Source: Dictyostelium discoideum (taxonomy: Eukaryota). Taken from it: a stretch of DNA of 64,000 nt. The notes under the pieces are model-generated. The model ran no database searches and was not told where the DNA came from. It saw nothing but the letters and a program-made list of their open reading frames with translations. The DNA lies in NCBI GenBank assembly GCA_000004695.1, contig CM000155.2:2848001-2912000 (forward strand), read 5' to 3'. Shown one piece after another: positions 25,447 to 26,167 of the stretch (positions are counted from its first letter, which is position 1; each line of letters begins with the position of its first letter). A program made the translations under genes and the position numbers.

Positions 25447-25911
25447 TTAATTATTGACTCTTCTACTTACTCTTTTGTTACTAACAGATGAAGTTTCGTT
25501 TGAAAATCTTTTGGTGAAAAAATCAGCATCAGATTGTAATTGATTAGCTCTTTTTTTACCCGTTTTGTTTTTGTTTGATTGAGTTGTGATTCCACCATTA
25601 TTGGAAGTTGTTGCAGCTTCATGTGTTGATCTAACTTCGGTGGTAGAGTGCTCGATTGCTTTTTCAACTAGGTCATCTGTTGATTTTCTTTTGGTTATTT
25701 CGATATCCCTTTGCAATTAATTTTTACTTGTCTCCGCCTCTCTAAATTCAACATTTACTTTGTACTTCAAATCATTTTTATCAATAGTAACTTCGTTAAA
25801 TAATACACCAAATTCATCACTTTGATTGAATTCAACATCTTTAAATTCCAAAAAAGCGATATCTTCGGGTGGATACTTTTTATTAGATTTATTGTTTTTA
25901 CTGTAGATCAT
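25447..25911 (-). CDS. ORF pair of unknown function separated by one in-frame TAA (65 aa + 89 aa); intact copy of a duplicated segment
   Basis: ORF1 25717..25911 MIYSKNNKSNKKYPPEDIAFLEFKDVEFNQSDEFGVLFNEVTIDKNDLKYKVNVEFREAETSKN. A TAA stop follows, then in the same frame ORF2 25447..25716 (LQRDIEITKRKSTDDLVEKAIEHSTTEVRSTHEAATTSNNGG...). ORF1 is 100% identical at protein level to 56523..56717. The second-copy ORF2 equivalent carries multiple stops. Confidence 0.4.
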
Positions 25912-26167
25912 TTTTTGGAACGAAAACTTTAAAAAAATAAAAAAATAAAAAAAAAATACTTTTTAATTTTTTTAATTTTTTTTTTTATATTTTTTTTTTT
26001 TATATTTTTTTTTTTTAAATTTTTTTTTTTAATTTTTTTTTATTTTATTTTTTAAAGTTTCGAACAATTATATATAAAAAAAAAAAAAGATATCCCTTCG
26101 GTTAATTATAGTAACAATACAGACAACAAGAATAATTATAAAATAAAAAAAAAAAAAAAAAATTTTT

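Follow-up and report, generated by a model that had tools for sequence, protein, structure and literature searches.

The known DNA transposon thug-S is present in multiple copies in Dictyostelium discoideum, belongs to the Thug family and is a source of microRNAs (Glockner et al. 2001, cited in PMC5633606, PMC4894637, PMC6161686). The Thug family accounts for about 0.1% of the D. discoideum genome. The gene DDB_G0271154 is listed as a 'thugS element' (dictyBase label; PMC12405889), and the published loci and spacing of the thug-S microRNA miRNA_can_D3 are given in the S4 Table of PMC4894637. A 2017 review describes the transposases of Dictyostelium DNA transposons as like no known transposase.

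Several integrase-type or integrase-like groups provide points of comparison. Ginger2/TDD elements, which include Tdd-4 and Tdd-5 of D. discoideum, have target-site duplications (TSDs) of 4-5 bp and terminal inverted repeats (TIRs) of 260-297 bp (PMC2836005). IS3EU/GingerRoot elements and most prokaryotic IS481 elements have 6-bp TSDs, and the termini of IS3EU/GingerRoot are mostly TA..TA (PMC10045372). IS481EU elements have TGT...ACA termini and TSDs of 4, 15 or 25 bp, and they are known only from parabasalids (PMC10045372).

The window, which is the whole 64-kb stretch of the AX4 reference analyzed here, carries what a sequence-only reading took to be a segmental duplication of an ORF pair, with one copy intact and one decayed. 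Our analysis arrives at a different explanation. The apparent pair is a single thug-S split over unmerged, overlapping contig ends, and the element is a core-deleted, non-autonomous derivative with a Lys-to-stop mutation. We give this reading a probability of about 0.9.

Results

The repeat in the assembled sequence

Self-BLAST of the window returned a direct repeat between 25425-26162 and 56230-56968 (739 columns, 95.3% identity), which is far above chance similarity. The window has a GC content of about 22% and long homopolymer runs. ORF1 (64 aa, minus strand) is the same at 25717-25911 and 56523-56717. In the first copy, ORF2 (89 aa, 25447-25716, minus strand) continues in frame with ORF1 past a TAA at 25717-25719, and in the second copy the ORF2 frame is interrupted by several stops. 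The AT-rich tail at 25912-26162 equals 56718-56968 over 251 bp with no differences, and 100-N gaps are located at 26168-26267 and 56130-56229. A foldback pair in inverted orientation lies to the left of copy 1 (24953-25163) and to the right of copy 2 (57077-57322); self-BLAST delimits the pair as about 24960-25163 versus 57280-57077. These foldbacks on opposite sides of the repeat are the termini of a single element. The repeat, ORFs, stops, tail, gaps and foldbacks of the sequence-only reading are all present in the window. The repeat belongs to the assembled AX4 sequence and not to the genome. Two further ORFs of the window are exact protein matches to known products: 13187-15916 is AbcB1 (XP_629144) and 57541-58050 is DDB_G0293454.

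The contig pieces around the gaps are named here contig A, which ends at 26167, contig B (26268-56129) and contig C, which starts at 56230. Pairwise alignment of the two copies placed every difference within 56233-56517. They do not extend beyond the first 288 bp past the N-gap, and an N at 56317 is among them; the following 451 bp (56518-56968) are a 100% match to copy 1. The number of substitutions in 56230-56517 is 34-36 depending on the alignment, the N included.

Both copies map to one locus in a gapless assembly

The D. discoideum ACTFIT genome (GCA_054883475.1) was used for comparison. A gapless 21-kb locus (L001) on contig JBTAPE010000034.1 was reached through the ORF homologue ACTFIT_008970. 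ACTFIT and a second genome, ACTFIR, are isolates other than AX4 with 0.3-1.2% divergence. Window positions 23543-26162 aligned to 8098-10716 of the reverse-complemented locus, and window positions 56230-64000 aligned to 9979-17734. Both copies fall on one 738-bp stretch of ACTFIT, and the 30 kb that separate them in the window are absent there. Joining 24700-26162 directly to 56969-57600 gave a 2,095-bp sequence that matched L001 at 100.000% with no gap. There is one copy where a segmental duplication had been proposed. The sequence-only reading had also named duplicated contig ends from misassembly as the scenario that would overturn it, and the joined sequence and the ACTFIT mapping match that scenario.

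A three-way alignment distinguished the two readings of the overlap base by base. ACTFIT agreed with copy 1 at 36/36 differing sites and with copy 2 from 56518 onward. At 26163 and 26165, ACTFIT sides with contig C against contig A, and contig A is erroneous over its final 5 bases (26163-26167). The changes in copy 2 comprise 27 transversions and 8 transitions. We infer that the 36 differences are contig-end errors, probably low-quality base calls, because they cluster at the contig end, include an N call, show an excess of transversions and are resolved in favor of copy 1 by ACTFIT at every site. The 'decayed' state of copy 2 consists of these private errors. A diverged thug-S paralogue pulled in by the assembler was considered as the source of copy 2 and rejected; just one of the 36 variants, at an ambiguous A/T site, was present among seven thug-S copies. 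Unmerged contig ends and mis-ordered contigs are familiar from Sanger-era scaffolds. The duplicated block here adjoins placeholder 100-N gaps, has errors and an N at the contig end and collapses in a gapless assembly, which is the textbook pattern without departure. The features of the element and of the surrounding assembly are listed in Table 1.

Table 1. Features of the split thug-S element and of the assembly around it; positions are those of the window.
Feature	Position	Strand	Basis
Target-site duplication AATATG, left	24947-24952		Identical hexamer outside both termini
Left terminal inverted repeat, begins TGTCCCATGCC	24953-25163	+	Aligns to reverse complement of 57077-57322
AT-rich spacer downstream of ORF	25164-25446	-	Conserved among thug-S copies; no ORF
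'ORF2', putative C-terminal 89 codons of remnant, stop 25447-25449	25447-25716	-	97% to AX4 thug-S products; aligns to C-terminus of P0035 and P0038
GT..AG segment of 51 nt removed by AX4 and ACTFIT annotators to bypass TAA	25677-25727	-	DDB_G0293432, ACTFIT_008970
TAA, AAA(Lys)->TAA nonsense mutation, this copy only	25717-25719	-	Seven-copy comparison
'ORF1', putative ~8 N-terminal codons fused in frame to C-terminal segment 'SNKKYPPEDIAFLEF...'	25720-25911	-	P0038 and L006 alignments
AT-rich region upstream of ORF ('tail'), on both contig ends	25912-26162	-	Identical in ACTFIT
Wrong end of contig A plus 100-N gap, false join	26163-26267		ACTFIT runs directly into 56969
Contig B, 30 kb, outside the element, mis-ordered in AX4 scaffold	26268-56129		Absent between the halves in ACTFIT
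100-N gap, false join	56130-56229		Sides 56.8 kb apart in ACTFIT
Start of contig C, probably of low quality; error-laden second reading of 25425-25711 ('decayed ORF2')	56230-56517	-	ACTFIT comparison
Exact second reading of 25712-26162 (ORF1 and upstream AT-rich region)	56518-56968	-	0 differences
AT-rich internal sequence, contig C only	56969-57076	-	Adjoins 26162 in ACTFIT
Right terminal inverted repeat, finishes GGCATGGGACA	57077-57322	-	Copy homology stops at 57322
thug-S pre-miRNA hairpin, near-perfect	57151-57250		dG -55.1 kcal/mol, z -10.2 (RNA fold)
Target-site duplication AATATG, right	57323-57328		Identical hexamer outside both termini

The 30-kb block and the AX4 gene models

Contig B was located elsewhere on the same ACTFIT contig. 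Window positions 41410-56129 aligned to 166,790-152,134 of JBTAPE010000034.1 at 98.8% identity, and the thug-S locus lies at ~208 kb; the left end of the block was positioned in ACTFIT by collinearity only. The two sides of the second gap, 56129 and 56230, correspond to 152,134 and 208,899, and the block has an equal relative placement in ACTFIR. Contig B breaks off mid-gene at 56129. The other strains carry on from this point into unique sequence that is absent from the window, and in ACTFIT this sequence is the remainder of the gap-cut, PEN-2-like gene, not thug-S. A gene within the block (51455-52348) has the orthologues ACTFIR_009083 and, in ACTFIT, KAM9944264, the latter identical to AX4 DDB_G0293442. 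In the true order, contig C follows contig A, and about 19 kb from outside the window come before contig B. The window has two more N-gaps, at 10956-11055 and 23438-23537. Both are real gaps of small size, represented in other assemblies by 242 bp and 257 bp.

We rejected a 32-kb composite element with the foldbacks as its boundaries; its 30-kb interior is missing from the site in two other strains. A search for an empty target site covered D. dimigraforme and ACTFIR; in both, the whole ~12-kb host region is missing. In the AX4 annotation the two halves of the element are two genes, DDB_G0293432 ('partial') and DDB_G0293452. Both are spurious models for one transposon remnant. A further AX4 gene, DDB_G0293488, is a shorter second model identical to part of the block-B gene DDB_G0293442. 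It is probably a redundant model from another unmerged overlap, and a real duplication would fit too.

The element is a copy of thug-S

The element at the locus is one copy of thug-S on D. discoideum chromosome 6, an assignment based on annotation and on papers later than Glockner et al. 2001. The 21-mer of the thug-S microRNA miRNA_can_D3, AUUAAUUUCGGCAGCCAUAUU, matched exactly at 57160-57180, where the chance expectation is 0. Its partner was found at 57223-57245 with 1 mismatch and at the published 63-nt spacing. ORF2 shares 97% identity with P0012, which represents a 90% cluster containing DDB_G0271154.

The complete element is 1,564 bp long and consists of window positions 24953-26162 plus 56969-57322. 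Its ends are TGT...ACA and its inverted repeats measure 211 and 246 bp. The sequence-only reading had suspected pieces of a larger repeated element left unresolved by the assembler. This part of the reading stands, but the element is no longer than 1,564 bp and the nearby foldbacks are its own TIRs. Each TIR closes with a hairpin of ~58 nt, the right one at 57264-57322. The left repeat holds two, the terminal one (24953-25011) and a second at 25019-25102, with dG values of -17.7 and -23.7 kcal/mol and z about -7.

Seven loci of the ACTFIT genome, the window locus and six further loci (L006-L011), were used for copy comparison. The copies have unrelated flanks, and the homology among them starts exactly at TGTCCCATGCC and stops at GGCATGGGACA. 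Each of the full copies (6/6) has a private 6-bp TSD: CATATT, GTTATT, CATAGT, TATATT, CGCACA and ATTAAC in the ORF orientation. TIRs together with a TSD of fixed length are the traits of a cut-and-paste TIR transposon. The chromosome-6 copy is 1,564 bp compared with about 1.8 kb in five other copies. It lacks ~470 bp that include an (ATT)n array, keeps the original ATG segment and has the private TAA.

One interrupted reading frame

ORF1 and ORF2 are best read from their alignments as a single gene remnant, with the first ~8 and the last ~145 codons of a transposase and a predicted deletion of the catalytic core. The first 8 codons, start codon included, together with the 35 nt upstream match the start of copy L006 at 62/66 positions. 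The position of the TAA was compared across copies and proteins. Copies L006, L007 and L008 read AAA (Lys) in frame at this codon, and L009-L011 have a 1-nt deletion in the A-run just upstream of it. Lys is conserved at this position in P0009, P0012, P0035 and P0038, and the paralogous proteins read ...SKNKLQRD.... The same TAA is present at the ACTFIT locus, so the stop is real and not a sequencing error.

Pfam searches with the repaired 154-aa product returned no domain, and a search with the interrupted flanking ORF returned no match. An autonomous transposon is expected to encode a catalytic domain; alignment of this ORF to full-length relatives extends only outside their rve core. The element is therefore non-autonomous. 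The AX4 and ACTFIT gene models bypass the stop with a 51-nt splice, and the model proteins P0026 and P0010 omit the residues 'SKN*LQRDIEITKRKSTD'. This splice is probably an annotation device and not a real intron.

Full-length relatives carry an rve integrase core

An exhaustive HMMER search returned four representatives only, among them P0035, a 469-aa protein of D. cf. discoideum. A follow-up search identified relatives of 382-571 aa in D. discoideum strains (P0038, P0039 and P0040). P0035 matches the Pfam rve integrase core with E 8e-16, above the cut-off, and P0038 also matches rve as well as retroviral integrase cores in PDB. Neither P0035 nor P0038 has an Integrase_H2C2 match, so that no HHCC zinc-binding domain was detected in them. 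The best NCBIfam model for both is IS481 (E 1e-21 to 1e-23) at 75-84 bits against a membership cut-off of 224.

In the repaired ORF, residues 9-149 match P0038 417-570 in a single alignment block (E 4e-40) that is continuous across the TAA position. The reading frames of L006 are collinear with the N-terminus of P0039. The L006-type ORF has ~165 N-terminal codons, 98% identical to the rve-bearing P0040, followed by the same C-terminus as the window ORF. Both thug-S variants would then be internal-deletion derivatives without a catalytic core, a deletion history that we infer from these alignments. ORF1 had earlier been said to match nothing recognized. This is explained if ORF1 is a remnant of an rve-type transposase from outside the catalytic domain.

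P0031 (DDB_G0270824, 769 aa), which has Integrase_H2C2 and rve_3 matches, clusters with the thug-S ORFs. It looks like a chimeric gene model with a retrotransposon integrase.

Discussion

The segmental duplication is not real. Behind it stands a copy of a known transposon in which an ordinary nonsense mutation has occurred. The contigs ending at 26167 and starting at 56230 both enter one thug-S and overlap by 738 bp. They would have been left unmerged because the first 288 bp of contig C are of low quality. A 30-kb contig from tens of kb further along would then have been scaffolded between them, and this step would give rise to an apparent direct duplication with an 'intact' and a 'decayed' copy. 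The element itself would be a non-autonomous internal-deletion derivative of a parent with an integrase-type (rve, IS481-like) DDE transposase. It would depend on a transposase supplied in trans, which would recognize the retained TIRs, and, as published for thug-S, its hairpin-rich ends double as a microRNA precursor.

Could AX4 truly have two thug-S copies flanking 30 kb, one of them diverged, through strain-specific transposition or recombination or as a part-collapsed tandem duplication? The comparison genomes are other isolates and not AX4, AX4 holds two gene models for one block-B gene, and laboratory D. discoideum stocks often have large duplications (PMC2643946). We consider this very improbable all the same. 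When the two halves are put together with the flanks outside them, the result is a single element that has a matching 6-bp TSD and is 100% identical to ACTFIT, and the block between the halves ends inside a unique gene instead of in thug-S. The 'divergence' starts exactly at a contig end, includes an N, is rich in transversions and shares essentially no variants with other thug-S copies. The remainder of the overlap is 100% identical, and true divergence would not end so abruptly. A duplication of chromosome 6 at this locus is also not reported for AX4.

Within the single element, the TAA invites two other explanations that would each preserve a protein product. A genuine short intron at 25677-25727 would give a spliced mRNA for an uninterrupted protein of ~137 aa. 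The segment has GT..AG borders and a length divisible by 3, the same splice occurs in at least 7 gene models, and it contains two independent lesions, namely the TAA of this copy and the 1-nt deletion of L009-L011. That clustering, 2/5 mutational events within 12% of the ORF, is not significant (P = 0.1, approximately and by estimate). In the full-length proteins the homologous residues (SKNKKQRDLELAIRES) belong to uninterrupted coding sequence, P0009 is annotated without the splice, and the GC content of the segment (27%) is near that of coding sequence (31%) and unlike that of the AT-rich spacers of the element (10%). Dictyostelium introns have a mean length of about 146 nt, and 51 nt would be very short. 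We regard the intron as unlikely by a wide measure. Programmed readthrough or recoding of the TAA, which would yield the 154-aa product, was named as one possibility by the sequence-only reading and is scarcely credible. ORF2 does lie in frame past a single, real stop that ACTFIT shares. A recoding site is expected to keep its stop among homologues, but the TAA occurs in 1/7 copies, with three reading AAA and three carrying the nearby frameshift, and the full-length relatives have Lys. No conserved recoding signal can be defined because the stop itself is not conserved, and the copy is otherwise degenerate, with its ~470-bp internal deletion and no catalytic domain. Recoding was rejected on these grounds, and a nonsense mutation in one split thug-S remains our reading.

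The element is a thug-S family member by its microRNA and hairpin, its 97% identical ORF C-terminus, its multicopy occurrence, its identical termini and its 6-bp TSDs. The window copy differs from other members in its shorter length, its private TAA and the one mismatch in the miRNA partner arm. Non-autonomous deletion derivatives such as Ds from Ac and the P-element KP likewise have intact termini and TIRs with N- and C-terminal remnants and no core; the full-length relatives of the thug-S ORF lie in other strains and are known here from proteins. The genes ACTFIW_007694, ACTFIT_004845 and ACTFIY_002525 are candidates for autonomous partners. A role of the truncated thug-S product as a repressor, or any other function, is pure speculation.

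Among integrase-like elements, thug-S shares with Ginger2/TDD the host, the cut-and-paste mode, long TIRs (211-246 bp) and an integrase-like DDE parent. It differs in its TSD, which is 6 bp in 6/6 full copies, and in a parent core that scores best with IS481 models. IS3EU/GingerRoot and IS481 resemble thug-S in the 6-bp TSD and its putative parent in an rve core without a detected HHCC domain, but the TGT..ACA termini set thug-S apart from IS3EU/GingerRoot and the score of its parent is far under the IS481 cut-off. IS481EU has the same TGT...ACA ends and differs in TSD length and host range. We tentatively raise the possibility, which we hold to be rather less than even, that Thug represents a lineage of integrase-type (rve, IS481/IS3EU-like) cut-and-paste transposons in Amoebozoa, characterized by TGT...ACA ends and 6-bp TSDs. 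Its catalytically complete members would reside in wild strains of D. discoideum and D. cf. discoideum, and reference thug-S would consist of core-deleted derivatives with N- and C-terminal remnants and microRNA hairpin ends. The rve link is possibly unrecorded, because the 2017 review reports no resemblance to known transposases.

The AX4 chromosome-6 reference appears to hold two false joins and a mis-ordered 30-kb contig. Synteny, copy-number and mapping work on this region should take account of the false joins and of the spurious gene models. A mildly new point is the traceable connection between thug-S ORFs and an rve-type transposase, which has full-length relatives in wild strains. This link offers a starting point both for the classification of the Thug family and for finding its autonomous partner.

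thug-S apparently interrupts an open frame and varies internally between copies

The flanks of the chromosome 6 thug-S copy were rejoined by taking out the transposon together with one copy of its target site duplication, AATATG. Joining 24733-24952 to 57323-57459 restores an open frame of 63 codons on the + strand, which reads ...YIDKKEDGQKEKIEAKKKKY up to the junction and ELKRKQTLELKELKSECGEGPVLSKEES...VGN followed by a stop codon after it. Because the flanks rejoin as an uninterrupted frame, the insertion site appears, from the sequence, to lie inside a coiled-coil-like ORF. 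This flanking ORF has no match in Pfam and no gene call in the assembly of strain ACTFIT.

Comparison of the chromosome 6 copy with the ACTFIT thug-S copies L006-L011 shows that, although their ends are the same, the elements differ in internal structure and fall into three variants or more. The first (n = 5 copies) is about 1.8 kb long, contains an (ATT)n array and lacks the start codon of ORF1, the 5' part of the transposase remnant. The second, typified by the ACTFIT locus L006, retains about 165 N-terminal transposase codons in frameshifted form, and the third is the 1,564-bp chromosome 6 copy. Gene models produced for thug-S by predictors place the start ATG within the terminal hairpin (MAAEINM...).

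Other gaps, repeats and contig ends in the window

The 100-N gaps at 10956-11055 and 23438-23537 have equivalents of 242 bp (strain ACTFIR) and 257 bp (ACTFIT). They are genuine small gaps, unlike the false joins at 26168 and 56130. Similarity of 72-79% links abcB1 (13256-13927) to 43324-43996 and 45383-46057, and abcB1 and the second transporter gene (Table) are ordinary gene-family members. Internal repeats at the window start (1-162 versus 862-1017, 86%; 262-496 versus 772-1009, 92%) fall within a 1,524-codon ORF, and 1-1017 is probably a repetitive coding region.

Two AX4 chromosome 6 gene models, DDB_G0293442 (387 aa) and DDB_G0293488 (242 aa), share identical sequence, the latter being a C-terminal subset of the former. 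DDB_G0293442 lies in the mis-ordered block B and the other model elsewhere on the chromosome. Their identity suggests a further redundant, unmerged contig overlap where the block truly belongs. The ORF cut short at the end of block B runs on in ACTFIT (…INILYFIPYRNSLNDKVKW…) and is putatively PEN-2-like.

Table. Coordinates of genes and regions in the window
Feature	Position	Strand	Remark
Second two-domain ABC-B transporter gene	43271-47850		Paralogous to abcB1
Block B gene of the DDB_G0293442/DDB_G0293488 pair	51455-52348	-	
ORF starting MLIPKDDKLVAEKMINIAKKLWFIGFFFLPWVWL	56028-56129	+	Truncated by the false join at 56130
Strain-specific region, ~12 kb	~19100-26167 plus 56230-~61400		Contains the thug-S copy

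A strain-specific region hosts thug-S

The ~12-kb region that contains the thug-S copy is wholly missing in D. dimigraforme and mostly missing in ACTFIR. It is flanked by inverted repeats (17909-19129 versus 61540-61136, 82-87% identity) and carries the DUF5906 (D5-like) genes DDB_G0293454 and DDB_G0293464, which in ACTFIT are one gene of 615 aa that matches Pfam DUF5906 at E 5e-7. Possibly the whole region is a large element, either mobile or of viral origin.
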